DNA from: Candidatus Paceibacter sp.
Lineage (GTDB): Bacteria > Patescibacteriota > Patescibacteriia > DYGC01
NCBI GenBank assembly: GCA_020724925.1
Contig: DYGC01000001.1
Location: 5,228 to 69,227 of the forward strand
Direction: 5' to 3'
Length of the DNA: 64,000 bases
Below, one piece after another: positions 14,912-64,000 of the stretch. The stretch's first letter is position 1, and each line of letters starts with the position of its first letter. Below the pieces are notes generated by a model. It was not told the DNA's origin, searched no databases, and saw only the letters and a program-made list of their open reading frames with translations. A program made the translations under genes and the position numbers.

Positions 14912-14913
14912 AA

Positions 14914-26219: not shown

Positions 26220-26220
26220 T

Positions 26221-28269: not shown

Positions 28270-28288
28270 TTTAATAATTAATAAGTAA

Positions 28289-28768
<480 letters not shown>

Positions 28769-28777
28769 TAAGAGTTT

Positions 28778-29341: not shown

Positions 29342-29349
29342 CTTTATTT

Positions 29350-30351
29350 ATGAATCAAGAAGCTTACGCTTATGCCAGTGCTAAGGTTCGGGCCTTGGAG
29401 TCTTATATGTTGAGCGAGGCAGATATTGTGCGCTTGGTAGAGGCAAAGGATGCGGAAGTGGCGTTTAAAGTTTTAAACGATACTGATTATGGTAGCGAAA
29501 TGTTGGATTTACAAGTTCATGAATATAAAGTGGCAATTAATCGCAAGCTTTTGCGTTTGCAAAAAGTTTTACTGAAAACAATCCCGGATTACGATTTGTT
29601 GAAGTTATTATATTTGGAGTATGACTATAATAATATAAAATTATTATTTAAATCCCGATATTTTTCTTGGCCGGCAGAGGAGTGGTTGATTGAATTTCCG
29701 GGTTTGGAGAAGGTTGATCAGTTGCGACGTTATATTATTGAGGATTTGGATGCCGGCGTTGATGAATACATTAAGCATCATATTAATCAGGGGAAATCTT
29801 TGGCCAAAGAGGCGGGGCCTTCATTGAGTCCGGCTCAGCTCGAGAATTTTTTTGATCGAAAATATTTTAAGTCAGCTTTGAAAATCGCGGAACGTTTAAA
29901 AAACGATTTTGTTTTAGAAACCTGGCGACGTTTGATCGATATTGCCAATGCAAAAATCACCGTGCGTGGTTTGTTGAACCAACAATCGATAGATTGGATA
30001 AATGATCGTTTGCACAATGGTGGTTTGACCGATATTTTTTATTGGCAACAAGCCTTTGCCGGCGGAATGGATGCGGTAGTTAACCGTTTGTCTTTGTTGT
30101 GGCCAAGTAATGATGGTTTTTGGGATAGTTTTAGACAGAATTTGGATTTAAGTCAGCTAGATCGCCAATTTCAAAATTCTTTTTTGGGGCATTTGCGAAA
30201 AGCCAAGCTGATTGGTTATGGTCCGGAAACGGTGGTGGCGTATTTTTTTGCCAAAATGAATGCCGTGAGGAATATCAATATTGCGATGGCTTTAAAAATC
30301 AATCAGGTACCTAGTCAAAATATTAAAAATTATTTAAGCGACTTATATTAA
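29350..30351 (+). CDS. atpC: A/V-type ATPase subunit C (d-subunit)
   Basis: 333 aa helical protein. N-terminus AYAYASAKVRALESYMLSEAD is typical of subunit C. Confidence 0.7.
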   Translation: MNQEAYAYASAKVRALESYMLSEADIVRLVEAKDAEVAFKVLNDTDYGSEMLDLQVHEYKVAINRKLLRLQKVLLKTIPDYDLLKLLYLEYDYNNIKLLFKSRYFSWPAEEWLIEFPGLEKVDQLRRYIIEDLDAGVDEYIKHHINQGKSLAKEAGPSLSPAQLENFFDRKYFKSALKIAERLKNDFVLETWRRLIDIANAKITVRGLLNQQSIDWINDRLHNGGLTDIFYWQQAFAGGMDAVVNRLSLLWPSNDGFWDSFRQNLDLSQLDRQFQNSFLGHLRKAKLIGYGPETVVAYFFAKMNAVRNINIAMALKINQVPSQNIKNYLSDLY

Positions 30352-30355
30352 TTTT

Positions 30356-30697
30356 ATGAGTGATAATCAATTATACAAAATCGCGATTTTAGGATCAGAA
30401 GAGGTTGTTAAAGGTTTTAAAATTTTAGGGCTTCAAGTTTTGACACCGAGCGACGAAGGCGGTGCTGAGAAATTATTATTAGAACTTAAAAGTAAAAATG
30501 ATTGTGCGGTTTTGATTATTACCGAAGATTGGGCTGGTCGTTTGGATGGATTTCTTAAAGAAGAATTTGCCAAAGTCTCATTGCCGGCCCTGGTGGTTGT
30601 GCCGGGTTTGGGCGGGCCGAGTGGTCAAGGTTTATTGCAATTAAGGCGAGTGGTGGAACAGGCAGTTGGTAGTGATATTTTATTTAATAATAATTAA
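30356..30697 (+). CDS. atpF: A/V-type ATPase subunit F
   Basis: 113 aa. IAILGSEEVVKGFKILGLQV matches the subunit F N-terminal pattern. Confidence 0.7.
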   Translation: MSDNQLYKIAILGSEEVVKGFKILGLQVLTPSDEGGAEKLLLELKSKNDCAVLIITEDWAGRLDGFLKEEFAKVSLPALVVVPGLGGPSGQGLLQLRRVVEQAVGSDILFNNN

Positions 30698-30705
30698 TAA
30701 AGATT

Positions 30706-32460
30706 ATGACAGCCAAAAACAATAAGGGCGTTGTCGTCAAAATCTCCGGACCGTTGGTGGTGGCGGAAGGGCTACCGGAAGCAAGGCTTTTTGATGTGGT
30801 AAAGATCGGTGAAAAAAAATTGGTTGGTGAAATTATTAAATTGGTTGGCAGACAAGTTTTTGTGCAGGTTTATGAAGAAACTTCCGGTTTAAAACCAGGA
30901 GAAGAAGTGGAATGGATGGGTTATCCGGTATCTGTAGAGTTGGGGCCAGGCTTGTTAACTTCAATTTATGATGGTGTGCAAAGACCATTGGAAGAAATTG
31001 AAAAAATTGCACAATCCCCGTTTATTACTAAAGGCATTGAAGCACCTGGTTTAAATCGTCAAAAGAAATGGAAATTTAAAGCTTTAAAGCGGGTCGGTGA
31101 TGAAGTTGGCCCCGGAGATATTATTGGTGAGGTACCGGAAACCGAGTTGATTACTCATAAAATTATGGTTCCGCCGAAAATGTCTGGAAAAATTACAGAT
31201 ATTCAAAGTGGTGATTATACAGTGACCGAAGTGGTTGCTAAAATTGGTGATAATGAGATTAGTATGATGCAACGTTGGGGTATTCGCGAACCACGCCCCG
31301 TACAAAACAAAATGTTGGCCAGTGAACCAATGTTAACCGGACAAAGAGTCATTGACACTTTCTTTCCGTTGGTGAAGGGTGGGGCGGCTTGTATTCCTGG
31401 TCCTTTTGGTTCTGGGAAAACCGTGGTGCAACACCAATTAGCCAAGTGGGCTGATGTTGATATTGTGATTTTCATTGGTTGTGGAGAGCGTGGCAATGAG
31501 ATGACTGATGTGTTAAAAGAATTTCCGGAATTGTTAGATCCGAAATCCGGTCGTCCGTTGATGGAAAGAACCGTGTTGATTGCCAATACTTCGAATATGC
31601 CGGTGGCGGCACGCGAGGCTTCGGTGTATACGGGTATTACCATTGGTGAATATTTTAGAGATATGGGTTACAAGGTGGCTTTGATGGGTGATTCGACTTC
31701 TCGTTGGGCCGAGGCCTTGCGAGAAATTTCCGGGCGCTTGGAAGAAATGCCCGGCGAAGAAGGTTACCCGGCTTATTTAGGATCTCGAACAGCTGCTTTT
31801 TATGAACGTGCCGGTTATGTTAAATGTTTGGGGGCTGATAATCGTGATGGTTCACTGAGCGTGATCGGAGCGGTGTCACCACCGGGCGGAGATTTGTCCG
31901 AGCCGGTCACCCAAAATACCTTGCGTGTGACGAAAGTTTTTTGGGGTTTGGATTCAGCGTTGGCGTATAAACGCCATTATCCGGCAATCAATTGGTTAAG
32001 TAGTTATTCTTTGTATTTAGATAATATTGCCGATTACTCCAAGAAAAATATTGCGGAAAATTGGTTGGATTTACGTTTGGAGGCGATGTCATTATTGCAA
32101 CAAGAATCTTCTTTGGAAGAAATTGTTAAATTGGTTGGTTTGGATTCTTTGTCTACTAAAGAGCAATTGGTTTTGGAAACCGCTAAATCTTTAAGAGAAG
32201 ATTATTTACAGCAATTCGCTTTTGATGAGGTTGATACTTATACTTCCACCAAAAAGATGCATTTGATGTTGTCATTGATTTTAACTTGGCACCATGAAGC
32301 CTTGGAGGCTTTGGATCGTGGTGTAAAATTATCGGTTATTAAAGACAAGAAAAATTTGAAGGAAGGAATCGCTCGTGCCAAGTATGTTCCTGAGGTCGAG
32401 TTGGGAACTTTGGAAAAGTTATTGGAAAATATTCATTCCGAATTTAATACATTAGCTTAA
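30706..32460 (+). CDS. atpA: A/V-type ATPase catalytic subunit A
   Basis: Walker A GPFGSGKTVVQHQL, Walker B region, A-subunit non-homologous insert region. 584 aa. Confidence 0.95.
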   Translation: MTAKNNKGVVVKISGPLVVAEGLPEARLFDVVKIGEKKLVGEIIKLVGRQVFVQVYEETSGLKPGEEVEWMGYPVSVELGPGLLTSIYDGVQRPLEEIEKIAQSPFITKGIEAPGLNRQKKWKFKALKRVGDEVGPGDIIGEVPETELITHKIMVPPKMSGKITDIQSGDYTVTEVVAKIGDNEISMMQRWGIREPRPVQNKMLASEPMLTGQRVIDTFFPLVKGGAACIPGPFGSGKTVVQHQLAKWADVDIVIFIGCGERGNEMTDVLKEFPELLDPKSGRPLMERTVLIANTSNMPVAAREASVYTGITIGEYFRDMGYKVALMGDSTSRWAEALREISGRLEEMPGEEGYPAYLGSRTAAFYERAGYVKCLGADNRDGSLSVIGAVSPPGGDLSEPVTQNTLRVTKVFWGLDSALAYKRHYPAINWLSSYSLYLDNIADYSKKNIAENWLDLRLEAMSLLQQESSLEEIVKLVGLDSLSTKEQLVLETAKSLREDYLQQFAFDEVDTYTSTKKMHLMLSLILTWHHEALEALDRGVKLSVIKDKKNLKEGIARAKYVPEVELGTLEKLLENIHSEFNTLA

Positions 32461-32469
32461 AATAATTTT

Positions 32470-33864
32470 ATGAATACGCAATACAAAACAATTCGGGAGG
32501 TGGCTGGTCCGTTGGTGGTAGTAAAAGATGTTAAGGATGTTTGCTATGAAGAAATGGTGGAAGTGGAATTGGGAAACGGTGCACGTCGTCGCGGTCGCGT
32601 TTTGGAAGTGAGCACGGACACGGCGGTGGTGCAGATGTTTGAAAGTAGCAGTGGCATTGACGTTACCAATGCTAGCGTTAGATTTTTAGGCAAAACCATG
32701 CAGTTGGGGGTTTCTGAAGATATGTTGGGCCGTGTGTTTAATGGCGCGGCTTTACCAAAAGGTGATATGCCGGCGATTATTCCGGAAAAATATGTGGATA
32801 TTAATGGTGCCCCGATTAATCCATTTTCTCGTGATTTTCCGGATGATTTTTTCCAAACCGGCATTTCTGCGATTGATGTCTTATCAACTTTGGTGCGTGG
32901 ACAAAAACTCCCGATTTTTTCTGGGGCTGGTTTGCCACATAGTGAGTTAGCGGCACAAATCGCTCGTCAGGCAAAAGTCGTTAAGGATAATTTAAAGGGT
33001 AATGATAAGGAGAAGTTTGCGATCGTTTTTGGTGCGATGGGCGTGACCTTTGAAGAAGCGGAATTTTTTATCAATGAATTTAAAAATACCGGAGCGATTG
33101 ATCGTTCGGTTTTGTTTGTGAATTTGGCTGATGATCCGGTGGTGGAAAGAATCACCTTACCAAGAATCGCTTTATCAACTGCGGAATATTTAGCCTTTGA
33201 AAAAGGGATGCACGTTTTAGTGATTTTGACTGATTTAACTAATTATTGTGAAGCTTTGCGTGAAATTAGTGCTGCTCGTAAAGAAATTCCTGGCCGTCGC
33301 GGTTACCCCGGTTATTTATATACTGATTTGGCTAGTTTGTATGAACGTGCTGGTCGTATTAAAGGACGTACCGGTTCGGTAACGCAAATTCCGATCTTAA
33401 CAATGCCGGAGGATGATAAAACCCATCCAATTCCTGACTTGACCGGTTATATTACCGAAGGACAGATTTATGTTTCTCGTGAATTGCATCGTAAGGGAAT
33501 TTATCCACCGATTGATATTTTGCCTTCATTATCACGTTTGATGTCTAAAGGGATTGGGGAAGGTAAAACCCGCGAAGACCATTCCGGTGTCGCCAATCAA
33601 TTATTTGCTGCTTATGCTAATGGTAAACAAGCAAAAGAGTTGTCGGTGATTTTGGGTGAATCGGCCTTGAGTGAAGCGGAGCGTGCTTATGTGAAATTTG
33701 CCGATGCCTTTGAAAATCGTTTTGTTAGACAAGGAAAACATGAAGATCGTAGTATTCAGGAATCCTTGAATTTGGCTTGGGAGTTATTTGCTTTGTTGCC
33801 GAAGGATGAGTTAAAACGTTTGAAGCCGGAAATGATTGAGAAATATTTACCTAAAAACGCTTAA
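32470..33864 (+). CDS. atpB: A/V-type ATPase subunit B
   Basis: 464 aa. Conserved B-subunit regions ([30 protein letters not shown]). Confidence 0.95.
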
Positions 33865-33873
33865 TTTTTTATT

Positions 33874-34515
33874 ATGGCTACACGTTTAAATGTTAATCCA
33901 ACCAAACAAGAATTGCTGAAGTTAAAATTAAAGTTGAAAACGGCACAACGCGGTCACAAGCTTTTAAAAGAAAAGCGTGATGGTTTGTTAAAACATTTTA
34001 TGGCGGTGATTAAGCAAGCTCGTGATTTGCGTAATAACGTTGAGCAAGATTTGGCTAAGGGTTTTCGTTCATATTTGGTGGCGGCCGCTCAGATGAATCC
34101 GGAGTTTTTGGAAAATGCTTTGTTGGGTTCAGAAAGAAAAGTTAGTTTACGTGCTAATATCAAAAATGTGATGAGTGTTAATATCCCAGAATTTGCTTAT
34201 GAGGAAAGTGGTGATTTTTTATCTTATAGTGCAACGTTTACTTCTGCTTCTTTGGATCAGGCTATTTCCAGCTTCGCTAATAATTTAAAAGATATTGTCA
34301 GTTTGGCACAAATTGAACACTCGGCTAAGTTATTGGCAGCCGAGATTGAAAAAACTCGTCGGCGGGTTAATGCTTTGGAATATGTATCAATTCCCAACAT
34401 TATGGAGACCATTAAATATATTCAAAGCAAACTTAATGAGCAGGAACGTGGTACTTTAATTACTTTAATGAAGGTTAAAGCCAAGTTAGAGGCGGAAGCA
34501 CGGGAGGCGGTTTAA
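33874..34515 (+). CDS. atpD: A/V-type ATPase subunit D (central stalk)
   Basis: MATRLNVNPTKQELLKLKLKLKTAQRGHKLLKEKRDGLL is a canonical D-subunit N-terminus. 213 aa. Confidence 0.85.
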   Translation: MATRLNVNPTKQELLKLKLKLKTAQRGHKLLKEKRDGLLKHFMAVIKQARDLRNNVEQDLAKGFRSYLVAAAQMNPEFLENALLGSERKVSLRANIKNVMSVNIPEFAYEESGDFLSYSATFTSASLDQAISSFANNLKDIVSLAQIEHSAKLLAAEIEKTRRRVNALEYVSIPNIMETIKYIQSKLNEQERGTLITLMKVKAKLEAEAREAV

Positions 34516-45923: not shown

Positions 45924-46778
45924 ATGCCGATTGACAGGGAAGAATTGGAAAAACATTTATTGGCAGATGAAGATTTGGATGAAGAGGCACGTTTAAAACA
46001 ATACGCTGCCGCTTTACCCGATGAACCAATGGTGGTTTCCAATTTGAAATATAAAAAACGACGATGGTTCACCAAGTGGTGGGGCGTTTTAATTATTATT
46101 CTTTTCTTTTTCTTGGTGATTTTTGCTTCCATGTTTTTTTATTATTACAAGGATTTTATTAAGAAAATTGAAGCAGGCACCATCCATTTGGATGTCGCTT
46201 ATATGAATTATGATTTTGCCACGCGCTATGATTTGTTGGCGATTTCCCGTGACGTGATGGCTGATGATCCGTGGTGGGGGCACGAAAATGCTAAGGTGGT
46301 AATTGTCGAGTTCGGTGATTATTCCTGCTCGTTTTGTAAAGATTTCAACAATAAAATCATGCCACAATTGATGGATAAATATTATAACGATATCCTGTTT
46401 ATTTATCGTGATTTCCCGGTAATGTCAGGGGCGGAGGGGGCGTCTGTGCAAATTGCTAACGTTGCCAATTGTATTTACAATCATTTAAATGATCCTCGTG
46501 ATTATTGGCGTGCCGTTCATAATTATTTATTTTTGATGACTGATAATTTGGGATCAGTGCATAAAGATTTAGATGGTTATTATGATGTCGTTAAGGCGGA
46601 AAAGTGTATTAATGATAAGATGTTTTACAATGAGGTTTTGCGTGATTTGAATCAGGGGGAAGAGCTGGGCTTGCGTGGAACGCCCTCGTTTTTTATTAAT
46701 GGGCATCCGGTGGCCGGTAGCATGGAAATTGAAGAATGGTTTTATGTGATTGATAAGTTTTTAGCTGCTAATCAATAA
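45924..46778 (+). CDS. DsbA-family thiol:disulfide oxidoreductase, membrane-anchored
   Basis: N-terminal TM helix. Thioredoxin-fold domain with active site DYSCSFCKDF (CxxC) and C-terminal GTPSFFINGHPVAG (cis-Pro loop region). Confidence 0.65.
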   Translation: MPIDREELEKHLLADEDLDEEARLKQYAAALPDEPMVVSNLKYKKRRWFTKWWGVLIIILFFFLVIFASMFFYYYKDFIKKIEAGTIHLDVAYMNYDFATRYDLLAISRDVMADDPWWGHENAKVVIVEFGDYSCSFCKDFNNKIMPQLMDKYYNDILFIYRDFPVMSGAEGASVQIANVANCIYNHLNDPRDYWRAVHNYLFLMTDNLGSVHKDLDGYYDVVKAEKCINDKMFYNEVLRDLNQGEELGLRGTPSFFINGHPVAGSMEIEEWFYVIDKFLAANQ

Positions 46779-47645: not shown

Positions 47646-48797
47646 ATGGCAAAAGTGATGGAAGGATCGCGCGCGGTGGCGGAGTTGGTGCGTTTGTGTG
47701 AACCGGGCGTGGTTAGTGCTTATCCGATTACCCCGCAAACTCATATTGTGGAATATTTGGCAAAATTTAAGGCTGATGGCTTAGCTACTTATGAATATGT
47801 GCGTGCTGAAAGCGAGTTCACGGCAGCGTCCGTGGTGCTTGGTGCATCAGCCAGTGGCGTTCGTGTGTATAGTGCCACCAGTTCCCAGGGTTTATTATTG
47901 ATGACCGAAGTTTTGTTTAATATTGCCGGCATGCGTTTGCCAGTGGTGATGACTTGTGCCAATCGTTCCGTGAGCGCCCCGATTAATATTTGGAATGATC
48001 AACAGGATGCTTTAACTATTCGTGATTCCGGTTGGTTAATGTTTTATGGTGAGACCGTTCAGGAAGTTTTGGATTTGCATTTGTTGGCTTATAAAGTAGC
48101 AGAGCAATTGAGTTTGCCGGTGATGGTTAATATGGATGGTTTTATTTTAACTCATACTTTTGAACCGGTTGATATTCCTGGTAAGAAAATGATTAAACAA
48201 TATTTGCCAAATTATAAACCGGTTTTGGGGGAAGTTTTAGATCCTAAATTGCCAAAATCATTTGGTTGTTTTGTTGGCCCGAAATATTACTTTGAAATCA
48301 GAAAAGAATTATTTGATAATGTTGTTTCCAGTTTAAAAGTGATTCAGAAGGAAGTACTTAATTTTAAAAAAATATTTAAACGTGATTTGTCTCCGGTGGA
48401 ATATTTTGGTGATAAGCAAGCCAAATTGGTTTTTGTGACAATGGGGTCGGTGGCCGGAACAGTTAAGGATTTTATTGAGAAACACAACAAAAAAAGTAAA
48501 GATAAATTAGGTTTGTTGAAGCTTCGTTGTTTTAGACCTTTCCCGACCGAAGAGATTTTTAAGATTTTAGGTAAAGCTAAGAAGGTGGCAGTCCTTGATA
48601 AATCAGTATCAATGGGGGCGGAGGGGGTTTTGTCCGGTGAAATGAAGCGAGCTTTTTATGGCCGCAAGACTTGTCCGTTAATTAAAAATTATATTCTTGG
48701 TTTGGGCGGACGAGATATTACCAGCGGAATCTTGGGGGACATTTTTGAAGATTTGAAAAAGAGTAGTCAGTCAGAGATTATTTTTAAAGGTAAATAA
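47646..48797 (+). CDS. porA: 2-oxoacid:ferredoxin oxidoreductase alpha subunit
   Basis: MEGSRAVAELVRLCEPGVVSAYPITPQT is a canonical PorA N-terminus. 383 aa. Confidence 0.85.
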   Translation: MAKVMEGSRAVAELVRLCEPGVVSAYPITPQTHIVEYLAKFKADGLATYEYVRAESEFTAASVVLGASASGVRVYSATSSQGLLLMTEVLFNIAGMRLPVVMTCANRSVSAPINIWNDQQDALTIRDSGWLMFYGETVQEVLDLHLLAYKVAEQLSLPVMVNMDGFILTHTFEPVDIPGKKMIKQYLPNYKPVLGEVLDPKLPKSFGCFVGPKYYFEIRKELFDNVVSSLKVIQKEVLNFKKIFKRDLSPVEYFGDKQAKLVFVTMGSVAGTVKDFIEKHNKKSKDKLGLLKLRCFRPFPTEEIFKILGKAKKVAVLDKSVSMGAEGVLSGEMKRAFYGRKTCPLIKNYILGLGGRDITSGILGDIFEDLKKSSQSEIIFKGK

Positions 48798-48803
48798 GTA
48801 TAT

Positions 48804-51179
48804 ATGGATTTAAAAAAATTTTGGGATTGCATTAAAAAATCCTATCGCAAATTGAGTTTTTATGAATTGATAACGATGGTGTTTTTTGCGTTTGTGATTT
48901 CCGGCATTATTGTTGGTGATGTTTTGGCGGCAGATAATGTTACGATGAAATATCAGGTGCCAATCGTTGGTGGGCAGAACCCCCAAACTTTGCCGTTGTA
49001 TATCAACGTTGTTTATAAGTGGCTCATGGGGGCGGGCTTGGTTTTGGTGGGTATTATGGTGACAATCGGTGGTTTCATGTATGTTTCTTCCGGTGGTGAT
49101 GCCAAAACCATTGGTACGGGGAAAAAATATATTATCAATGCTTTAATTGGCATGTTGTTGTTATCCAGTGCTTATTTGATTTTAAATACCATCAACCCGG
49201 ATGCGACAGAAATGGAAGATATTGTGGTAAAGCAGGTTGAGGGGGAGGTATTGAAAAATCAAATTGAAGTTCCCTTGGGTTGTGAATGTCATGCTAATAA
49301 AGATTGTGTTAATGCTGCTACCAGTTCTTATTTTTGCGATTGGAGTAGCGGCGGAAGAATGGTATATGATGCTTCCAATAAAAGTTTTATATCACAAAAG
49401 TTAGATCCTTATGCTGAAGCGATTATAGTCGGTACCATTTTAGTGGCGGTTGCTTTTGGCACGGCTGGAACGGGCATTCCCGCTTATTTGGCTTCCAAGG
49501 CTGCGGCTGCCGGAAAAACTGCATTAACTGTGGGAAAAGTGATTGGGAAAGCGGCTTGGGCAACATTCAAATTTACATTCAAGTGGGTGATTTTACCGAC
49601 TAGTTCTTTTGTAGCCGGAGCGGTTATTTCTAATCCGGCCCTTGTTTTTATGGGTTTGATGATGCTTGCCGGGGGTGCAGCCTTTGATTTTAATACGGAA
49701 ATCGTAAAAAAATGTAATCCCCCTAGTGGTGAAGTTAAGGGCGTTTGTTTACCAAATGCTTTTAGGTATGCAAGGTTGAAAACCCATGGGGCGGGGCCAA
49801 CCGATGTTGATTTGGCGGCCGGTACAACGAATAAAAATGGTATGTTTAGTATTTATAATACCGATGGCACTTTGCCGAAGCGTGATTTTTATTTTCGTGA
49901 TCAGGTGACATATTCCATGACTATTAATCAGGAGGGGGGATCATCCTTGTCGGCTGATTCTATTACTCATTTTTATAGAGGTGGTTCCACTGATGGTATT
50001 GTGAACACTGATGGTTGTGCCAGCTATATAAAAAAATATGAAGAAAATTATTGTCCCTGTATTGAATGGGAGGATGGTTTTATGTTTACAAAGTGTAAAA
50101 AACAAGCATCATGTGCAACTATAGAGATGGAGGGTGTAAATATTTATACGGTTGGTGCTGGTGGTACATATTCACAAGGACCAACGTTAAAAAGTACCCA
50201 ACTTTGTTTAACTGGTACGGAAGGGGAAATGTGTAAGACTAATGATGATTGCGGTAAGGGTTTGGAATGTGTCAGTTTAGAAGAGTTGGGAAAGGCTGCA
50301 TATGGTGATGAGTGGCGAAAGTTTGCTATTAAATATAGTACTTTTAGAAAATCAGTAAGAACTTCTCTTACTGATTTAGGGAGTGTCGGTACAATTAAGG
50401 GTGGCTGGGATAGAGACAAAGTTTGTATGTATTCAAAAAATGCGGATAAGGCCAGTTTAACACTTTCTTTGAAAAAAACATTGATGGGGATCGCAGATAT
50501 AGGGGAGTTGGATTGCATGGCTGGGTTAGAAAAATCTGGTGATCATAAAATTCATTGTACTAAGATGGACGTTCCTGTTAATTATTGTGGAATGCTTTCT
50601 TCTGATGTAAAACTTGAAAATTATTTAAAGGCTGGGACAGCGGTAAAAATGTCCGAGGCTTTGTATGACGAAGCCTTAAAATTGTTGGGAAATACAAAAT
50701 TGCAGGTTTATGATAATCTGGATTCATATGTTGGTGCGTCGGCGGGGAATGCGACGGATGTTTTTGATATCAAGTTGGCACGTTGTGATTATTTTTTGCT
50801 TAGCGATAACGATTGTGCTGTTAAGGATGTTTTGGGGCGAGTTGAGCGAATCATTAGGACAACCGACTTGTGTACAAGACAAGCTCTTGATTCATATAAC
50901 CGAAATTATATTAGAAAAAATGCCGATAATTACAAGGACAATTATAGTTTGATGGACCCTGATGAATATTACAAATTTACTTTTGATTATAGTGATTTCA
51001 AGAGTTTTTGTGAAGGTGTTGATGATGAGTGTTCTTGTGATTTGAAGGGTTTGCAAAAAATGTCTTTGATTATACCAGAGGTTGTCAATGGTCCGATTAA
51101 ACATAGCTTTTGTTTAAAAAATACAGATAAATATGGTATTTATAACTATAATTTATTTGTTTTATTGGTTCAGCCGTAA
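48804..51179 (+). CDS. Large cysteine-rich surface protein with an N-terminal VirB2/TrbC-like pilin module (791 aa)
   Basis: Signal/anchor helix, then LYINVVYKWLMGAGLVLVGIMVTIGGFMYVSSGGDAKTIGTGKKYIINALIGMLLLSSAYLIL, the same TM/G-G-x-W/M-x-S-x-G-D/K-rich/TM module as the small paralogs at 62.2-63.9 kb. A second hydrophobic cluster near aa 210-290, then a ~500-aa domain with more than 30 Cys. Lies between porA and porB on the same strand. Confidence 0.55.
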   Translation: MDLKKFWDCIKKSYRKLSFYELITMVFFAFVISGIIVGDVLAADNVTMKYQVPIVGGQNPQTLPLYINVVYKWLMGAGLVLVGIMVTIGGFMYVSSGGDAKTIGTGKKYIINALIGMLLLSSAYLILNTINPDATEMEDIVVKQVEGEVLKNQIEVPLGCECHANKDCVNAATSSYFCDWSSGGRMVYDASNKSFISQKLDPYAEAIIVGTILVAVAFGTAGTGIPAYLASKAAAAGKTALTVGKVIGKAAWATFKFTFKWVILPTSSFVAGAVISNPALVFMGLMMLAGGAAFDFNTEIVKKCNPPSGEVKGVCLPNAFRYARLKTHGAGPTDVDLAAGTTNKNGMFSIYNTDGTLPKRDFYFRDQVTYSMTINQEGGSSLSADSITHFYRGGSTDGIVNTDGCASYIKKYEENYCPCIEWEDGFMFTKCKKQASCATIEMEGVNIYTVGAGGTYSQGPTLKSTQLCLTGTEGEMCKTNDDCGKGLECVSLEELGKAAYGDEWRKFAIKYSTFRKSVRTSLTDLGSVGTIKGGWDRDKVCMYSKNADKASLTLSLKKTLMGIADIGELDCMAGLEKSGDHKIHCTKMDVPVNYCGMLSSDVKLENYLKAGTAVKMSEALYDEALKLLGNTKLQVYDNLDSYVGASAGNATDVFDIKLARCDYFLLSDNDCAVKDVLGRVERIIRTTDLCTRQALDSYNRNYIRKNADNYKDNYSLMDPDEYYKFTFDYSDFKSFCEGVDDECSCDLKGLQKMSLIIPEVVNGPIKHSFCLKNTDKYGIYNYNLFVLLVQP

Positions 51180-51197
51180 TTTATTATTTATATTTTT

Positions 51198-52073
51198 ATG
51201 ACCAAACAATATCAAGCTCTCTCCCCCGGTCACACCGCGTGCGCCGGCTGCGGCGAACTTCTGGCAATGCGCCACGCTTTGCAAGCGGCCGGACCGGACG
51301 TAATCGTGACCGGAGCCACCGGTTGTAGTGAAGTCACCACTTCCGGTTACCCGGATAGTTCTTTCGGAATGCCGTGGATTCATTCTTTGTTTGAAAATTC
51401 ATCATCGGTTGCATCGGGGATCGCGGCGGCCCTGCGATACCAGAAAAAACAAGACAAAATCAAAGTGATTGCCACCGGCGGTGATGGCGCGACTTTTGAT
51501 ATTGGTTTTGGAGCACTTTCGGCAATGTGGAGTCGTGGTGATGATATTTTGTATATTTGTTATGACAATGAGGCTTATATGAATACCGGTGTGCAAGCTA
51601 GTGGCGCCACTTTGCCGGGAACATCTACGACCACCAGTCCGAGTGGGGCGGTGGAGCAGGGAAATATGATGCCGAAAAAAGATATGCCGGCGATTGCCAT
51701 GGCACACGGTTGTGTTTATGTTGCCACCGCCTCTCCCGGCTACCCGATTGATATTCAAAACAAAGTAAAAAAAGCTTTGACCATGAAGGGACCGAAATAT
51801 ATTCAGTTATTATCGCCGTGTGTGCCAGGCTGGGGTTTTTCTACTGATCAAGCAGTGAAATTAGGAAAACTCGCTCATCAAACCGGTTTGTATCCAATTT
51901 TTGAAGCTGTTAATGGACAAATCACCAGTGCGATGAAAGTCCCCAAACCCACGCCCTCGGTAAGCGCTTATTTGGAATTGCAAAAACGATTTAAACATGT
52001 TTTGAAAAACCCACAATTATTGGCGACGATTCAAGCAATCGCCGATGCCAATATTGTGAAATATGGGTTGTAG
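51198..52073 (+). CDS. porB: 2-oxoacid:ferredoxin oxidoreductase beta subunit (TPP-binding)
   Basis: CAGCGE ... GATGC ... ATGGDGATFDIGFGALS (TPP/Mg GDG motif). 291 aa. Confidence 0.85.
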   Translation: MTKQYQALSPGHTACAGCGELLAMRHALQAAGPDVIVTGATGCSEVTTSGYPDSSFGMPWIHSLFENSSSVASGIAAALRYQKKQDKIKVIATGGDGATFDIGFGALSAMWSRGDDILYICYDNEAYMNTGVQASGATLPGTSTTTSPSGAVEQGNMMPKKDMPAIAMAHGCVYVATASPGYPIDIQNKVKKALTMKGPKYIQLLSPCVPGWGFSTDQAVKLGKLAHQTGLYPIFEAVNGQITSAMKVPKPTPSVSAYLELQKRFKHVLKNPQLLATIQAIADANIVKYGL

Positions 52074-57825: not shown

Positions 57826-58698
57826 ATGTCTAAAAAAATTCGTAAAGTGATTATTCCGGTGGCTGGTTGGGGAACAAGATTTTTGCCGGCTACTAAAGCA
57901 CAACCTAAAGAAATGTTGCCGATTGTTGATACGCCGATTATTCAGCATGTCGTAGAGCAGGCTGTGGAATCTGGTATTGAGGAAATTATTTTGGTGACCG
58001 GTGCTTCTAAGCGTGCCGTGGAAGATCATTTTGATTATAATTATGCTTTGGAACAGCATTTGGAAAAGCAAAATAAGCCGGAATTATTAGCGGAAACGCG
58101 TCGCATCGCTGAGATGGCGACTTTTGTTTATGTTCGCCAGAAAGGTCCGTATGGTAATGGTACACCGGTTTTGACCGCCCGTGATTTAATTGGCGATGAG
58201 CCGTTCGCGGTGATGTGGGGCGATGAATTTTTTCATTCTGATTATAAACCGCATTTGCGTCAGCTGATTGATGTTTATGAAAAATATGAACAACCCGTTT
58301 TAACCGCCTATGAAGTGACTTCACGTGATGTGGAAAAATATGGTATAATAGATGCGAGCCTGATTGAAGACGGAATTTTTCAAGTTAAAAGAATTGTGGA
58401 GAAGCCTAAAAAAGAAGAAGCTCCTTCCAATTTAGCGTCTTTGGGGGGTTACATTTTAACCCCGGATATTTTTGACATTTTAGCTAATTTGCCTTTGGGC
58501 AAGGGAGGGGAGTTGTGGTTGACTGACGCGATTGCCAAGCTCTTGGAAAAACGACCGATTTACGCTTGTTTGGTGAATGGTACTTATTATGATACCGGTT
58601 CTAAATTGGGGTATTTACAGGCAAACGTTGATACTGCTTTGCGCCGCGATGATTTGCGAGATGATTTTTTGGAATATTTAAAAACAAAGATTAAATAA
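57826..58698 (+). CDS. galU: UTP--glucose-1-phosphate uridylyltransferase
   Basis: KVIIPVAGWGTRFLPATKAQPKEMLPIVDTPIIQHVVEQAVESGIEEIILVTG is a near-textbook GalU N-terminus. 290 aa. Confidence 0.85.
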   Translation: MSKKIRKVIIPVAGWGTRFLPATKAQPKEMLPIVDTPIIQHVVEQAVESGIEEIILVTGASKRAVEDHFDYNYALEQHLEKQNKPELLAETRRIAEMATFVYVRQKGPYGNGTPVLTARDLIGDEPFAVMWGDEFFHSDYKPHLRQLIDVYEKYEQPVLTAYEVTSRDVEKYGIIDASLIEDGIFQVKRIVEKPKKEEAPSNLASLGGYILTPDIFDILANLPLGKGGELWLTDAIAKLLEKRPIYACLVNGTYYDTGSKLGYLQANVDTALRRDDLRDDFLEYLKTKIK

Positions 58699-58708
58699 AA
58701 AATATTTT

Positions 58709-60115
58709 ATGAATGTGCCAGCCTTAAAAAAAATAACACTTAAATTTTTAGTGTTTTCTTTGGTTTTTGTTTTACCATTAAGCGGCTTTGGCTGTAAGTT
58801 GATGTCATCTGAGGTACAGGAGAATGTAAAATCAACCACTTTGGAAATCTGGGGTGTTTATATGAACAGTGCTCATATTAAACCGATTGTTGATGCTTAT
58901 CGAGTTAGCCATCCTTATGTACGAGTCAATTATACTAATTTTAGACCGGAAGAATATGAAACCCAGTTGTTAAATGCCATGGCTGAGGATCGTGGGCCGG
59001 ACATTTTTTTAGTGCACAACACTAAAGTTTTAGAATATCGCAACAAATTATTGCCATTGCCAGCGAGCGTGAAAGTGGCAACGCTCGTGGAGGAGGGGAC
59101 AATTAAAAAAGAGACCAAGGTGGTGATGCAAACCATTCCTGGTTTAACAGTCGGACAATTAAAAAAATCTTTTGTCGATGTGGTAGCGAGTGATGTAGTT
59201 TTTGTTAATGCTGAGACGCGCCAGGAGGAAATTTTTGGCTTACCCTTGAGTATGGATACTTTAGTTTTATATTATAATGCTGATTTATTGAACCGTGCGA
59301 ATATCCCGGAGCCACCACAAACGTGGATGGAGCTTCAAGAAATGATTCCCAAATTAACCAAGGTTGATGAAAATGATGGAATTGTCCAAGCGGGGATCGC
59401 TTTGGGTTTAAGTGATAACATTGATAATTATTTTGATATAGTGTCGGCTCTGATGTTGCAGAATGGAACGGTTTTTGCAAATGAGTATAATCAGTTAGTA
59501 ATGGATAAGATCCCTGGTGTTTTGCAGGGAAAAATTGAAGTTTCTCCGGCCCTGAGCGCCTTAGATTTTTATAGTTCTTTCGCGAAGCCATATAAGGTTA
59601 CTTATACTTGGGATAAATACATGAAGACGGCGGTGCAGTCGTTCGCGGCTGGCAATTTAGCGATGTTTGTTGGTTATCAATTTCATAATGAGACTATTAA
59701 AAGTTTGTCTCCAAAGTTGAATTATTTAATCGCACCATTACCACAGGTCAATCTGGAATATCCAATTAATTATGCTAATTATTGGGTGATGGGGGTTTCT
59801 AAAAAAACAAAATCAGCAGATGTCGCTTGGGATTTTGTGCAATATGCTACCCAAGCTGATCAGGTTAGTAAATACTTGACCGCCAGTGGGCGCGTTACTG
59901 CTTTGAAGGCTTTGGTGAAAAATCAACAAAGTGATGCTTTGGGAGTTTTTGCCAATCAGGTTTTAACTGCTAAAAGTTGGTTTCACGGTTCTGATTTTGA
60001 AGCGGCTAAAGCGGTCTTCAAAACCATGATTGATGATTCCGCCACTGATAATTATAAAAGTATGGGTGATTTGATTTCTAATACTAATACCAAGTTGAAT
60101 AGTATTTATAGATAA
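58709..60115 (+). CDS. Extracellular solute-binding lipoprotein (ABC transporter substrate-binding protein, family 1 / sugar-type)
   Basis: Lipobox LSGFGC. About 440-aa periplasmic-binding-protein-like domain; 468 aa. No cognate permease or ATPase adjacent. Confidence 0.55.
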   Translation: MNVPALKKITLKFLVFSLVFVLPLSGFGCKLMSSEVQENVKSTTLEIWGVYMNSAHIKPIVDAYRVSHPYVRVNYTNFRPEEYETQLLNAMAEDRGPDIFLVHNTKVLEYRNKLLPLPASVKVATLVEEGTIKKETKVVMQTIPGLTVGQLKKSFVDVVASDVVFVNAETRQEEIFGLPLSMDTLVLYYNADLLNRANIPEPPQTWMELQEMIPKLTKVDENDGIVQAGIALGLSDNIDNYFDIVSALMLQNGTVFANEYNQLVMDKIPGVLQGKIEVSPALSALDFYSSFAKPYKVTYTWDKYMKTAVQSFAAGNLAMFVGYQFHNETIKSLSPKLNYLIAPLPQVNLEYPINYANYWVMGVSKKTKSADVAWDFVQYATQADQVSKYLTASGRVTALKALVKNQQSDALGVFANQVLTAKSWFHGSDFEAAKAVFKTMIDDSATDNYKSMGDLISNTNTKLNSIYR

Positions 60116-60126
60116 AAATAAAATAT

Positions 60127-62109
60127 ATGAGGATTTTCAGGCATTTTTCTTTTTTCCTTTTGGTGTTTGCCATGTTTACCTTAAGTGGTAATTTTGTGTT
60201 TTCGGCTGATGATTGTGTTAAAGAGGAGGAGTTGGTTTGTTACACAGTTTTAAGGGTTGATGGTATGAACGTTTTATTTAATGCCACTCCTTCTGGTATT
60301 CAGTTATCGACAAGTGAGGCTCTTAGCTATGCGATGATGAGTGATCAAGCTCGTTCCACTTCTTTGGTGTGCCTCATTCCTAAAAGTAAAATCCCAAAAA
60401 ACATTACTGATGATGATTCTTATGCTCGGTGCATGGCAGAAGCATCGTCTGCTAGTTATGGGTCATTGAAATATTATAAATGTTGGTTGGGAAACAATTT
60501 TAATACTATTACTAGCCCAAATTTTTACACTTGCAATTGGTACACAATTGAAAAGCAGTTGGCTGCGGAAGCACAAGCTAAGCGGCTTGCAGAAGGTAAG
60601 GAATATGGTTCTGGAAACATCACTTGTGGTGGTCGTACTTTTCAGTGTACACCTAGTGGTTGGTTCGCGAATGTTTCCCCCGCCTGTTTTTGTTGCGGTC
60701 AGTGCGAGCCCCGGGATTTATTAACAGTTGGAAATACCTTTTTAAAATGGTTGTTTGGTATTGTCGGGGCGATTGGTTTGGCAATGTTTGTGTGGGGTGG
60801 TTTCAATTGGATTACTTCTGCCGGTGATCAGGGTAAGATCACGACCGGTAAAAAGGCGATTACTAATACCATGGTTGGTTTACTGATTATGTTTTCCGCT
60901 GGAGTGGTTGTTATGACTATTCAAAAAACTCTTGGTTTGGATGTGCAGATATCAGTGGTGGGGCAGCTTGATAGTAATACCGGAGCGGATGCTACCGGTA
61001 GTACCGATGCTAGTCAAGAAGTTCATGGTAATTTGCAATTGGGTGATAAGTGTACAGTTCAAGAGAAAACTTCTAATAGTGATTGTGCTAAGGATTTATA
61101 TTGTTATGCGGTTAAGGACAATCCGGAAACTAAAGGTATTTGTTTGCCAAAAAATCCGAAGGGGTCATCAAAGCCCGGTTATCGTTGTTGGATTTTAAAT
61201 GATGGCAATACTTGTTCTTTGGGGGAATGTTTGGTACTTGTGGAGCCTTCGGTAGATCCTGGTACTACTAATAAAGCCATTCCTGGGACGGAAGGTGTTT
61301 GTACCAGTGAAGAAGACGTAAATAAAATCATTGGTAAGGCTTGTAAGGCCGATACTGAGTGTGGTTCTGGTTTTAAGTGTACTAATGGGAAATGTATAAT
61401 CGTTACTAGCAGTAATATGAATCGTCGCGAACCGTGCTACGTGTTACCGGGTAGTAATACTAATGATTGTATCTCTGATTTTAAGTGCTTTCCGGATTTA
61501 AATAATGCGACTGCTAAAAGAACTGTTGGCACAAAAGGAACCTGTGCTTATAACCAAAGCTTGGTTGAAGGTAAAATATGTATTGGTAATGTTGAATGTA
61601 AAACTGGTTTGCTTTGTAAGCGGATTCCTAAGGCTTCTACCGAGGTGTGTGTTAGTAAAACGAGAAAATTTGATGTTCCTGTCGGTGGATCTTGCTTTAA
61701 ATTTACCATGGAGGGATCCAGTGATCCTGATGATCAATGGAAAAACGTGATTGATAATTGCGTCTTAGGTTTAGATTGTTATTATGGAAAAGATAGCGAC
61801 AAGTCTGGCATTTGTGCACCACCAAATCCTGTGAATTCTGTTAGCAGTATTGGTGGAGAGTGCTATATTTTGCCAGGTAGTTCATCAATGTGTGCCAACA
61901 ATTCCCAGTGCGTTGCTTATATTTCCAAGGCTTATAAAACAACTCCTGGATCAAAGGGTATTTGTATTCCTAAGTATAATTCAGTGGACGAAGGTCAGAC
62001 TTGTGTTTATTTGCCTGGAACTAAAACTGTTTGTAAGAGTGGTTTGACTTGTGATATCGGAATGTGGACCAAGGAATTTGGTCGACAAGGAGTTTGTGTG
62101 CGCAAATAG
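60127..62109 (+). CDS. Large cysteine-rich surface protein with VirB2/TrbC-like pilin module and about 7 tandem Cys-knot-like modules (660 aa)
   Basis: Signal peptide. Cys-rich N-region, then pilin-like module LKWLFGIVGAIGLAMFVWGGFNWITSAGDQGKITTGKKAITNTMVGLLIMFSAGVVVM. About 7 repeats of C-x(5-12)-C-x(3-6)-C-x(8-20)-G(I/V)C(L/I/V)PK (e.g. GDKCTVQEKTSNSDCAKDLYCYAV...KGICLPK; GGECYILPGSSSMCANNSQCVAY...KGICIPK). Confidence 0.55.
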   Translation: MRIFRHFSFFLLVFAMFTLSGNFVFSADDCVKEEELVCYTVLRVDGMNVLFNATPSGIQLSTSEALSYAMMSDQARSTSLVCLIPKSKIPKNITDDDSYARCMAEASSASYGSLKYYKCWLGNNFNTITSPNFYTCNWYTIEKQLAAEAQAKRLAEGKEYGSGNITCGGRTFQCTPSGWFANVSPACFCCGQCEPRDLLTVGNTFLKWLFGIVGAIGLAMFVWGGFNWITSAGDQGKITTGKKAITNTMVGLLIMFSAGVVVMTIQKTLGLDVQISVVGQLDSNTGADATGSTDASQEVHGNLQLGDKCTVQEKTSNSDCAKDLYCYAVKDNPETKGICLPKNPKGSSKPGYRCWILNDGNTCSLGECLVLVEPSVDPGTTNKAIPGTEGVCTSEEDVNKIIGKACKADTECGSGFKCTNGKCIIVTSSNMNRREPCYVLPGSNTNDCISDFKCFPDLNNATAKRTVGTKGTCAYNQSLVEGKICIGNVECKTGLLCKRIPKASTEVCVSKTRKFDVPVGGSCFKFTMEGSSDPDDQWKNVIDNCVLGLDCYYGKDSDKSGICAPPNPVNSVSSIGGECYILPGSSSMCANNSQCVAYISKAYKTTPGSKGICIPKYNSVDEGQTCVYLPGTKTVCKSGLTCDIGMWTKEFGRQGVCVRK

Positions 62110-62182
62110 GTTTGTCTAAAAAGTATTTTTACGCTATAATATAGGTATTATAAACGCCTAATTAAAAAATAAGAAAAAAATT

Positions 62183-62587
62183 ATGCGATCAATGAAAAGT
62201 TTCGTTTTGAGCTTGGTCATGGGCTTGGCGGTTTTTATGCCTTTGGCTGGTGCTAGTGCTGTTACTTTGTTTCCAGATGCTTCTGGTACCGGGGAAGACA
62301 TGGCTACTACCATGGGTTTAAGCGCTGACAAGTCTTTGGCTGAGATTATCGCCAGTATTATTAACATTGTCTTAAGTGTCTTGGGTGTGGTCTTGGTTGT
62401 TTTGATTATTTATGCTGGTATTAAATGGATGACTTCTTCTGATGAAAAGGGTGTCGGTGATGCCAAGAAAATTTTAATCAACGCGATTGTCGGTTTGGTA
62501 ATTATCGTGGCTGCTTGGGCGATTACCTCATTCGTGGTTAGTAGTATTATGACTTCTGTGGGCGATACCGGTGGATTACCTTCCTAG
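62183..62587 (+). CDS. VirB2/TrbC-like pilin-fold protein, paralog 1 (134 aa)
   Basis: Sec-type signal peptide (PLAGASA/VT). Mature part: TM helix IVLSVLGVVLVVLIIYAGIKWMTSSDEKGVGDAKKILINAIVGLVIIVAAWAITSFVV (two TM helices joined by a W-M-T-S-x-D/K-rich turn). Own terminator downstream. Confidence 0.55.
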   Translation: MRSMKSFVLSLVMGLAVFMPLAGASAVTLFPDASGTGEDMATTMGLSADKSLAEIIASIINIVLSVLGVVLVVLIIYAGIKWMTSSDEKGVGDAKKILINAIVGLVIIVAAWAITSFVVSSIMTSVGDTGGLPS

Positions 62588-62595
62588 TTTTTTAT

Positions 62596-62622
62596 AAAAA
62601 GGAGAGTTATTCTCCTTTTTTA
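62596..62622 (+). terminator. Rho-independent terminator after pilin-like paralog 1
   Basis: AAAAGGAGAG-TTAT-TCTCCTTTTTT: perfect 8-bp stem plus T-run. Confidence 0.6.
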
Positions 62623-62658
62623 TAAGGCATCAGTTAATTTGTTGGTGTTTTATAAAAA

Positions 62659-63015
62659 GTGAGAATAATAAAAATTAATATGTTAAATATAAAAAACAAA
62701 TTTCTTGCGTTGGTGACGTCTTTTGCTTTGTGGTTGTTTCCTTTTTGGGTGTTCGCGGAAACTTTATATAATCCAATGAGTGGGACTAAGGATGTGCCAA
62801 CTTTAATTGGTAAGATTTTGAGTATAGTAATTGGTATAATTGGAGCAATTGCTTTGGTAATGTTTATTTTTGGTGGTTTTTTATGGATGACTTCTGCAGG
62901 GGATACGGGATCAATAAAAAAGGGGAAAGATACCATGGTTTATGCAGTTTTGGGATTGGTTGTGGTTTTTTCTGCACGGGCAATTTTGTCTTTTGTTTTT
63001 GAAAATTTAAAATAA
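62659..63015 (+). CDS. VirB2/TrbC-like pilin-fold protein, paralog 2 (118 aa)
   Basis: Signal peptide (WVFA/ET), then IGAIALVMFIFGGFLWMTSAGDTGSIKKGKDTMVYAVLGLVVVFSARAIL. Confidence 0.55.
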   Translation: MRIIKINMLNIKNKFLALVTSFALWLFPFWVFAETLYNPMSGTKDVPTLIGKILSIVIGIIGAIALVMFIFGGFLWMTSAGDTGSIKKGKDTMVYAVLGLVVVFSARAILSFVFENLK

Positions 63016-63025
63016 GTTTATTGAT

Positions 63026-63454
63026 ATGAATAAAAAAATGATTTATTTGGGGGCGTTACTATTTTTTTTGATAGTTCCTTTTTCTTTATTGGCCGCCGAT
63101 TATGGTTTGACCGAGAGTGCTAATGCTGCAAATCTCCCAGAAAATGTTAATTTAATGGGAATGATTGCAAAAGTGGTTGGAACTGCGCTGTCTTTGGTTG
63201 GTGTGATTTTCTTGATTTTATTTATTTATGGAGGAATGCTCTGGATGACGGCCGGTGGTAAGGCTGATAATACAAAAAAAGCTAAGGATTTAATGGTTAA
63301 TGCGGTAATTGGTCTAGTTTTGATTTTTAGTGCGTATTTTGTGACCAGATTTGTGGTTAGTGAATTAACTTCTGCTTCCCAGGTTGTTCCCGGGGGAAGT
63401 ACAACACCAACGCCTGGAACGAGTTTTAGTAATGGAGTTTTTGATAAAGTTTAG
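63026..63454 (+). CDS. VirB2/TrbC-like pilin-fold protein, paralog 3 (142 aa)
   Basis: Signal peptide (SLLA/AD), then LVGVIFLILFIYGGMLWMTAGGKADNTKKAKDLMVNAVIGLVLIFSAYFV, plus a T/P/G-rich C-terminal tail. Confidence 0.55.
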   Translation: MNKKMIYLGALLFFLIVPFSLLAADYGLTESANAANLPENVNLMGMIAKVVGTALSLVGVIFLILFIYGGMLWMTAGGKADNTKKAKDLMVNAVIGLVLIFSAYFVTRFVVSELTSASQVVPGGSTTPTPGTSFSNGVFDKV

Positions 63455-63481
63455 TTTTCAGTTTTTAATAAAATTATTGCT

Positions 63482-63868
63482 ATGGGGTTTCTTTTTTCTA
63501 ATCAATTGATAGTTTTGTTTCTAGGATTTTTAGCGGGGATATTTTCTCCTTTTTTAACATTTGCCAGCGATTATGGGACAAGTGAATTAGCCAGTCAATT
63601 GGGATATAAGACTTATGCGGTTGACCGTGATTTGATTTTAGCGATTGTTGGCAAAGTTATTGCCGGTGTTTTAGGGTTTTTGGGAGTAGTTTTTTTGGTT
63701 GGTATTGTTTATTATGGTTTTAGATGGATGACAGCCGGTGGGAAGTCAGATGTAGTGAAGGTCGCGAAAGATGGGATTACAAATTTGGTAATTGGTTTAA
63801 TTTTGGTTTTATCGGCTTATGCTATTACTAGTTTTATTTTAAGTATTTTAACTAATGTTAATAAATAG
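63482..63868 (+). CDS. VirB2/TrbC-like pilin-fold protein, paralog 4 (128 aa)
   Basis: Signal peptide (TFA/SD), then LGVVFLVGIVYYGFRWMTAGGKSDVVKVAKDGITNLVIGLILVLSAYAI. Confidence 0.55.
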   Translation: MGFLFSNQLIVLFLGFLAGIFSPFLTFASDYGTSELASQLGYKTYAVDRDLILAIVGKVIAGVLGFLGVVFLVGIVYYGFRWMTAGGKSDVVKVAKDGITNLVIGLILVLSAYAITSFILSILTNVNK

Positions 63869-63872
63869 AATT

Positions 63873-64000
63873 ATGTTGAAAAAATTTTTAGTAAAGATAT
63901 TTATTATAGCAATCTTATGTGTGCCTACATTAGCATATGCCGCAAATTTGAATGATGCTACTAGTGTTTTGGATTCTGGGGCCAAGGAGATGGGCTATCA
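63873..64000 (+). CDS. Secreted protein, N-terminal fragment (continues past window end)
   Basis: ATG at 63873 encodes MLKKFLVKIFIIAILCVPTLAYA/ANLNDATSVLDSGAKEMGY, a Sec signal peptide with AYA cleavage site. Truncated by the window edge. Confidence 0.35.
   Translation, partial: MLKKFLVKIFIIAILCVPTLAYAANLNDATSVLDSGAKEMGY

Follow-up and report, generated by a model that had tools for sequence, protein, structure and literature searches.

A chromosomal array of VirB2-like pilin-domain genes, one fusion and seven short, in a probable member of the Patescibacteria

The 64,000-nt stretch of contig DYGC01000001.1 analyzed here (the window) has near its end four consecutive small genes on the + strand (62183-63868), and these raise the question of what kind of pilin they encode and what would assemble it. 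The original prediction had read them as a tandem array of four VirB2/TrbC-like pilin-fold paralogs, accompanied by a fifth secreted gene and with no assembly machinery in view. Our analysis supports the identification of the four products as pilin-fold proteins of the VirB2/TrbC type, found in type IV secretion systems (T4SS) and represented by Pfam family PF18895, and places their genes in a longer array of eight. We consider it likely that the locus is a chromosomal array of VirB2-like T4SS pilins, one fusion and seven short proteins, assembled by a VirB4-powered T4SS encoded elsewhere. Judged by its sequence relationships, the source bacterium probably belongs to the Patescibacteria (candidate phyla radiation, CPR) and is related to class ABY1.

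Organization of the array and family assignment

The four predicted open reading frames (ORFs) are present on one strand as described, only the start of the second differing in public gene calls, but four genes and a fifth secreted one proved to be an undercount. A public contig (L001), identical to the window at all 10,519 overlapping bases, extends the locus beyond the window end, and the complete array comprises eight consecutive pilin-domain genes on the + strand: one long fusion gene and seven short genes, here named pil1 to pil7, of which the predicted fifth secreted gene is pil5. The fusion gene (60127-62109, 660 aa) comes first. It is followed by pil1 (62183-62587, 134 aa), pil2 (62659-63015, 118 aa, or 111 aa from its likely start, the ATG at 62680 used in the public gene call), pil3 (63026-63454, 142 aa, with a Thr/Pro/Gly-rich C-terminal tail) and pil4 (63482-63868, 128 aa). 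The N-terminus of pil5 occupies 63873-64000, and the full gene (129 aa) runs to about 64262, past the window. The last two genes, pil6 (about 64264-64731) and pil7 (about 64749-65159), lie beyond the window in L001 and precede yebC and ruvC. Local identity among the array paralogs is 34-56%.

A strong terminator had been proposed after the first paralog, and folding agrees with this. An intrinsic-terminator-like hairpin (62596-62620, + strand), followed by a U-run ending at 62622, lies 3' of pil1; its folding energy is -13.8 kcal/mol (z = -4.1), and 0 of 200 shuffled sequences folded as well. On the other side of pil1 there is a promoter-like site, TTGTCT-17-TATAAT (62112-62140, + strand; 8631-8659 in L001, window offset +53481), recognized by consensus match only, such sites being no more numerous in this region than in shuffled sequence.

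The family assignment was based on two Pfam profiles, PF18895 (T4SS_pilin, gathering cut-off 26.6 bits) and PF04956 (TrbC/VirB2, 27.9 bits), and on the NCBIfam equivalog model NF045849 (Mbov_0395 family pilin-like conjugal transfer protein, 40 bits). PF18895 scored above its cut-off in pil1 (49.8 bits), pil2 (51.4 bits), pil3 (35.0 bits) and the fusion (39.5 bits, at aa 200-262). The pil4 product fell marginally under it (25.2 bits) and aligns in register with its paralogs, while pil5 to pil7 carry precomputed PF18895 matches. Only pil2 passed the PF04956 threshold (36.6 bits, its match spanning positions 6-97 of the 98 in the model); pil3 reached 14.7 bits, under the cut-off, and the other paralogs gave no match. 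NF045849 was the best NCBIfam model for the fusion and all seven short paralogs. Its scores, 39.0, 39.9, 23.4, 27.8, 29.1, 35.9 and 36.0 bits for pil1 to pil7 and 19.6 bits for the fusion, are all under 40 and indicate a related family, not membership.

PF18895 was present in 63/63 homologs from a large protein collection, the few named ones among them being called pilin or coming from Parcubacteria/Woesebacteria. Many homologs match both PF18895 and PF04956. A HMMER scan of 1.84 billion cluster representatives put the size of the family at 111,118 proteins (E <= 0.001). The top scorers of this family-wide search were poly-hairpin proteins, such as P0206 (552 aa, 6 tandem pilin hairpins) and P0208 (1,775 aa, 17 hairpins), both single polypeptides with no internal signal peptides.

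The cleavable signal peptide and two-helix hairpin foreseen for the four short pilins were seen in the sequence alignment, in hydropathy profiles and in the structural model of pil1. Each protein begins with a hydrophobic signal-like segment with an AxA-type end, followed by two long hydrophobic helices, which are joined by a short polar loop carrying an invariant Lys (alignment and hydropathy). The motifs common to the paralogs are W-M-T-[SA]-x-G, the invariant Lys and G-L-[VI]. The predicted W-M-T loop, Lys and G-L-V motifs are thus real, but the A-(V/L)-(I/L)-G-L-V stretch opens the second helix rather than ending it. In the AlphaFold2 model of pil1, computed from a 56-sequence alignment, the signal helix spans residues 2-28 and is joined by a disordered linker to a hairpin (H52-84/H88-125) that has a predicted local distance difference test (pLDDT) score of about 90.

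Together with the PF18895 and PF04956 matches, the lack of a prepilin signal upheld the reading of these proteins as VirB2/TrbC-type rather than type IV pilins: no G|F/MxxxE motif and no Pfam match to an N-methylation domain was found in the array proteins, which have AxA-type sites and two helices, not a class III signal and a single helix. Structure-based searches were less informative. Fold searches were non-specific, as a bare helical hairpin resembles thousands of structures, and querying PDB sequences with the profile of the family returned only spurious matches to repeat proteins ("Pizza"). A holin origin, named beforehand as a possible refutation, was also considered and rejected, as was a phage origin. 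No holin or other unrelated family was matched in Pfam or PHROGs, and the flanks consist of housekeeping genes with no phage context. We therefore regard it as extremely improbable that the array proteins are holins or some other unrelated kind with only a superficial likeness to pilins; small membrane proteins with two helices are widespread, but PF18895, PF04956 and NF045849 agree.

Conservation of the short paralogs and variability of the fusion

Related loci were collected by scanning GTDB species representatives with a 13-sequence alignment, which yielded 79 loci, mostly of class ABY1. The closest belongs to a "Patescibacteria group bacterium" (72% identity), and most others to metagenome-assembled genomes (MAGs) of Uhrbacteria, Falkowbacteria or the Parcubacteria group. 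All 79 contain a tandem array, of 2-10 genes and typically 5-8. The same arrays as in Uhrbacteria, Falkowbacteria and Patescibacteria-group MAGs are also borne by dozens of MAGs titled 'uncultured Gammaproteobacteria bacterium' (e.g. L016-L018, L071, L077); these titles look like placeholder or mistaken taxonomy.

Three of the relatives (L009, L015 and L094) have the same eight genes in the same order and with the same neighbours. The matrix of scores between L009 and the window was diagonal-dominant, giving each paralog a 1:1 ortholog. Every paralog has positional 1:1 orthologs in two related species, with ratios of nonsynonymous to synonymous substitution rates (dN/dS) of 0.02-0.37, which are rough values, dS being near saturation. 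In the comparison with L094, pil1 showed 98% amino acid identity and a dN/dS of 0.02, while the flanking housekeeping genes showed 76-95%; the most divergent genes were the fusion (67%), pil2 (72%) and pil4 (74%). Against L009, identity was 75% for pil1, 51-63% for the other pilins, 42% for the fusion and 64-93% for the flanks. The pil1 gene is the most conserved of the region and is under the strongest purifying selection there.

Because of this conservation and of its own promoter-like and terminator-like signals, pil1 is likely to encode the major structural subunit. The same features, including its top conservation among the paralogs, lend indirect support to the suggested pattern of an abundant major subunit followed by minor ones. 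The remaining short genes had been proposed to serve antigenic variation through their divergent tails, and here the data point the other way. Their 1:1 orthologs under purifying selection imply the long-term upkeep of distinct, non-redundant genes, not a reservoir of variants, and strain variability is located in the N-terminus of the fusion. In the literature searched, we found no description of the conservation of pil1, of per-paralog 1:1 orthology or of the N-terminal swap in the fusion.

The 660-aa fusion protein opens with a signal peptide and an N-terminal ectodomain that is variable. The pilin hairpin (aa 200-262, nt 60724-60912) comes after a Cys cluster (C167-C193) and before a Cys-rich tail of eight 4-Cys modules (aa 309-657), of which some relatives have six. 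Only six homologs were found, all with PF18895 and all within a narrow clade. Protein alignment showed that the hairpin and the neighbouring Cys cluster are conserved, while the N-terminal 180 residues are unrelated between strains. At the DNA level, one contig (L096) is 99.3-99.7% identical to the window on both sides of positions 60133-60672 (+ strand), the segment of the fusion gene that encodes the signal peptide and N-terminal ectodomain. In place of these 540 nt it has 405 unrelated nt (its positions 1971-2375), with no blastn match between the two versions. The difference is a localised cassette replacement. The alternative version in L096 is made of small Cys-rich modules resembling those of the C-terminal tail. 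The AlphaFold2 model of the fusion has a mean pLDDT of 57; the tail modules are beta-rich, with pLDDT values of 70-90, and the remainder is of low confidence. Comparison of this model with the PDB gave nothing significant, the weak resemblances to small disulfide-rich folds, a spider toxin and an IGFBP-like protein, all having E > 0.2.

Long pilin-domain proteins are a regular component of the related arrays, in which about 21% of the pilin-domain ORFs are >= 200 aa, mostly at the array 5' end. Among them are giant ORFs with a full N-terminal pilin domain: L075 9899-19981 (at least 3,358 aa), L077 9989-19984 (at least 3,328 aa) and L042 5716-10620 (1,635 aa). The first two extend to the end of the available DNA, so their lengths are lower bounds. 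A second long pilin-domain ORF precedes each of the three giants, and no binding-protein gene of the kind described below lies upstream of them.

The window contains one further candidate of this type, separate from the array. The gene at 48804-51179 (+ strand) encodes a membrane protein of 791 aa with 27 Cys residues, which combines a pilin-like hairpin at its N-terminus (PF18895 23.8 bits at aa 65-130, under the cut-off; 52 bits with the family profile built in this analysis) with extra transmembrane segments. The remainder of the protein had no match in Pfam, PHROGs or NCBIfam, and it is uncertain whether it is part of the pilin system. The gene sits between those for the POR alpha (47646-48797) and POR beta (51198-52073) subunits, and the protein is conserved in L094. 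A gene for a DsbA-like thioredoxin-fold protein (Thioredoxin_4; 45924-46778) is located in the same region as these two Cys-rich pilin-domain proteins. Its product could fit extracytoplasmic disulfide formation in the fusion and might be needed by both.

Assembly machinery, upstream genes and alternative explanations

No gene for VirB4, VirD4, VirB11, PilB, PilT or PilD was identified with Pfam among the called genes from about 6 kb upstream to 10 kb downstream of the window, and the unannotated ORFs of the region gave no matches. The earlier observation that the 64 kb contain no T4SS or type IV pilus ATPase and no prepilin peptidase is therefore correct for all called genes. In distant homologs, arrays of 3-6 pilin genes adjoin PrgI/VirB3-like, TraC-like, VirB4 and TrbL/VirB6 genes near dnaN, which links the family physically to a T4SS of the monoderm type in those lineages. 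The arrays related to the one studied here differ in this respect: a VirB4 homolog was found near the array in 0/79 loci within the DNA examined (none within 10 kb).

Arrays of this type have been described. In a survey of 3,035 Patescibacteria genomes based on PF04956 and PF18895, Quinonero-Coronel et al. (2025; PMC12102498) reported 441 arrays of VirB2-like pilins, of 2-11 genes and with a mean within-array identity of 25%, which they likened to the VirB2 paralogs of Bartonella and Anaplasma; the pilins were near virB4 in only 1135/1948 assemblies. Eight of the genomes containing our loci are listed in Table S1 of that study, where 8/8 are of class ABY1 and 7/8 are VirB4-positive. Taken together with the 79 loci, this indicates that an unlinked array is the norm in the lineage and that the machinery is usually encoded elsewhere. 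Of the two options offered by the original prediction, machinery located elsewhere thus fits the relatives; its other option, an unconventional system, and the novelty this implied have to be abandoned, as the array type is published and NCBI entries for identical proteins are already named "pilin".

In the mechanism that we propose, the precursors would be exported by Sec and cleaved by signal peptidase I, and the subunits would insert into the membrane as two-helix hairpins with the Lys-containing loop in the cytoplasm and both termini facing outward. A monoderm-type (MPF-FATA-like), VirB4-powered T4SS encoded elsewhere would then extract and polymerise them into a conjugative-type pilus or surface filament. 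The pil1 product would form the bulk of this filament, and the other six short paralogs would act as conserved, non-redundant minor or alternative subunits. The fusion would expose its strain-variable N-terminal domain and disulfide-rich tail to the exterior, where contact with a host or partner cell would be their most plausible purpose.

Several observations weigh against this proposal. No T4SS gene was found across about 80 kb (about -6 kb to +74 kb in window coordinates). VirB4 queries taken from two loci (L011 and L013) gave at least 8000 matches in a protein database; the 120 listed were all 91-100% identical and, where named, from Saccharimonadia, so that this saturated search does not establish VirB4 in the genome studied. 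Some family members have 6-17 concatenated hairpins, which is awkward for a simple extract-and-polymerise model. The hhalign probability for the comparison with Agrobacterium VirB2 was 5.9%, with the I-x-W-M region in a sensible same register. Finally, no pilus of PF18895 proteins is reported in the literature consulted.

The genes directly upstream of the array are relevant to one of the alternatives. The galU gene (UTP-glucose-1-phosphate uridylyltransferase; 57826-58698, + strand; TIGR01099 345.9 bits, cut-off 326.8) is followed by a gene for an orphan MalE-like solute-binding protein, the N-terminus of which is a signal or perhaps that of a lipoprotein (58709-60115, + strand; SBP_bac_1 85 bits, SBP_bac_8 80 bits). 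The latter ends 11 nt before the first pilin-domain gene, and the closest solved relatives of its product are oligosaccharide-binding proteins; no permease gene of a cognate ATP-binding cassette (ABC) importer is located nearby. Of the 61 related loci that could be assessed, 46-49 have a co-directional homolog of the binding-protein gene immediately 5' of the array (E values of about 1e-62 to 1e-117 for adjacent copies), and a galU homolog lies upstream in 43 of 54 assessable loci. The remaining flanking genes of the window recur in just 0-7 of 78 loci. A functional tie to the upstream MacB-type ABC/MFP genes was rejected, since just 1-3 of 78 related loci have such genes beside an array. No link between the galU/binding-protein pair and pilin arrays was found described in a literature search. 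Many of the Gammaproteobacteria-titled MAGs (e.g. L017, L018, L071) also carry the pair.

The main rival of the proposed mechanism takes the hairpin for an oligomerising membrane module or a membrane anchor that forms no filament, the short paralogs belonging to an envelope complex and the long ones being tethered surface proteins. This is what the long ORFs (terminal hairpins in products that reach 3,300 aa or more), the existence of poly-hairpin proteins and the joining of a hairpin to further transmembrane segments in the 791-aa protein would suggest, and there is neither an adjacent assembly ATPase nor an observed pilus. We nevertheless consider it unlikely, given the homology to TrbC/VirB2 and the location of such genes within T4SS clusters of other Patescibacteria, where they are essential. 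In solved conjugative pili, both termini of the pilin face outward, and this makes fused ectodomains compatible with a pilus lattice.

It is also conceivable, with a still lower probability, that the ABY1-type operon of galU, binding protein and pilin array is a surface module independent of any T4SS, assembled by another route and coupled to sugar sensing, uptake or glycosylation. In its favour, most of the assessable loci have galU and the gene for the orphan sugar-type binding protein next to the array, while other flanks are not conserved, and none of the 79 loci has VirB4 within 10 kb. Gene order within one class may, however, be inherited without functional coupling; 7/8 checked relatives have VirB4 elsewhere, and the cluster contains no candidate for an alternative motor. 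We regard as highly improbable that the short paralogs are a reservoir for antigenic or phase variation by exchange between copies. Their divergence and the analogy with VirB2 of Bartonella and Anaplasma (PMC12102498) would be in keeping with such a role, but the positional orthologs and low dN/dS values argue against it, and the sole strain-level swap seen affects the fusion gene.

We put forward one further reading only tentatively. In ABY1-type bacteria, galU, the orphan binding protein and the extended and short pilins might constitute a conserved operon, never linked to virB4. The hairpin would serve as a polymerising or anchoring scaffold that displays modular host-recognition ectodomains (disulfide-rich, strain-variable, about 100 to >3,300 aa). 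Sensing or glycosylation would be the part of the binding protein and GalU, and a distant T4SS acting in trans, or else an undescribed route, might bring about assembly.

The other genes called in the region include dnaA, dnaN, and genes for PNPase, a class A penicillin-binding protein, trigger factor, a V/A-type ATPase operon, polA, POR and the MacB-type ABC system. The region of the replication origin is recognizable from rnpA, dnaA and dnaN (15602-18873). About 41 kb separate the start of the array from dnaN (17734-18873); the array has no adjacent T4SS gene and does not follow the published tendency of patescibacterial T4SS genes to neighbour dnaA/dnaN. The V/A-type ATPase operon (25887-34515), about 8 kb from dnaN, is complete, with subunits I, c, E-like, C/AC39, F, A, B and D. 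Just past the window end, after yebC and ruvC, L001 carries genes for 7TM_transglut and ATPgrasp_ST proteins (13044-15247); the pair is kept in three close relatives and, among distant loci, only in L024. Nothing suggested that the array originated as a mobile island: its GC content (35-39%) is similar to that of the flanks, relatives share the gene order, and an integrase is absent.

Comparison with known pilin systems

Patescibacteria account for a large share of uncultured bacterial diversity, and the cases studied live attached to other microbes. A T4SS with a pilin series is among the few systems shown to be essential for this attached lifestyle, namely in Southlakia, and the locus described here adds a well-defined syntenic case in another class. 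It leads to the predictions that pil1 is the major subunit, that the fusion is a strain-variable contact protein, and that galU and the binding protein function together with the array.

Like type IV pilins, the array proteins are small and secreted, with a hydrophobic N-terminal region, and arrays are common among both. Unlike them, they have two transmembrane helices instead of one and lack a prepilin motif, and the window contains no PilD, PilB or PilC. They resemble the Gram-negative TrbC/VirB2 pilins (PF04956; Agrobacterium VirB2, PDB 8cue/8exh) in their long signal peptide and in the two-helix hairpin with a short polar loop. They differ from these in that only one paralog reaches the family threshold, in the absence of a VirB5/VirB7/VirB9/VirB10 context at this locus and in the monoderm envelope of the host. 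The Mbov_0395 family (NF045849), the best NCBIfam model here, comes from the integrative and conjugative element (ICE) of a mycoplasma, a wall-less monoderm; the array proteins, in contrast, score below 40 bits and have no ICE context. Tandem amplification and divergence are shared with the virB2 paralogs of Bartonella and Anaplasma (cited in PMC12102498). Those are diderm pathogens of eukaryotes in which immune evasion is proposed, whereas the paralogs described here are of long standing, with orthologs in other species and purifying selection acting on them.

The closest counterparts are the arrays of other Patescibacteria. In Southlakia epibionticum ML1, a predicted pilin series in the T4SS cluster (SEML1_0006-0019) was found essential for epibiotic growth (Wang et al. 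2023; PMC10633639), and a 2025 review (PMC12857230) counts six VirB2-like pilins in this locus and ascribes to it the "potential to elaborate conjugative pili". Unlike the ML1 array, the one described here is neither in nor near a T4SS cluster, is headed by a Cys-rich, N-terminally strain-variable fusion gene, and follows galU and an orphan binding-protein gene. In common with the published arrays (PMC12102498, PMC10633639) it consists of tandem, divergent PF18895/PF04956 genes with Sec-type signals, on the chromosome of what is probably a monoderm CPR host. Its eight consecutive genes fit the definition of PMC12102498, which asks for at least two such genes, in tandem or one gene apart and of low pairwise identity. 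Its within-array identity is 34-56% (local) compared to the published mean of 25%, the two values having been measured differently, and its size of eight genes falls inside the published range of 2-11. The locus is thus a real and largely ordinary example of an array type already described, and it leaves the published picture unchanged.

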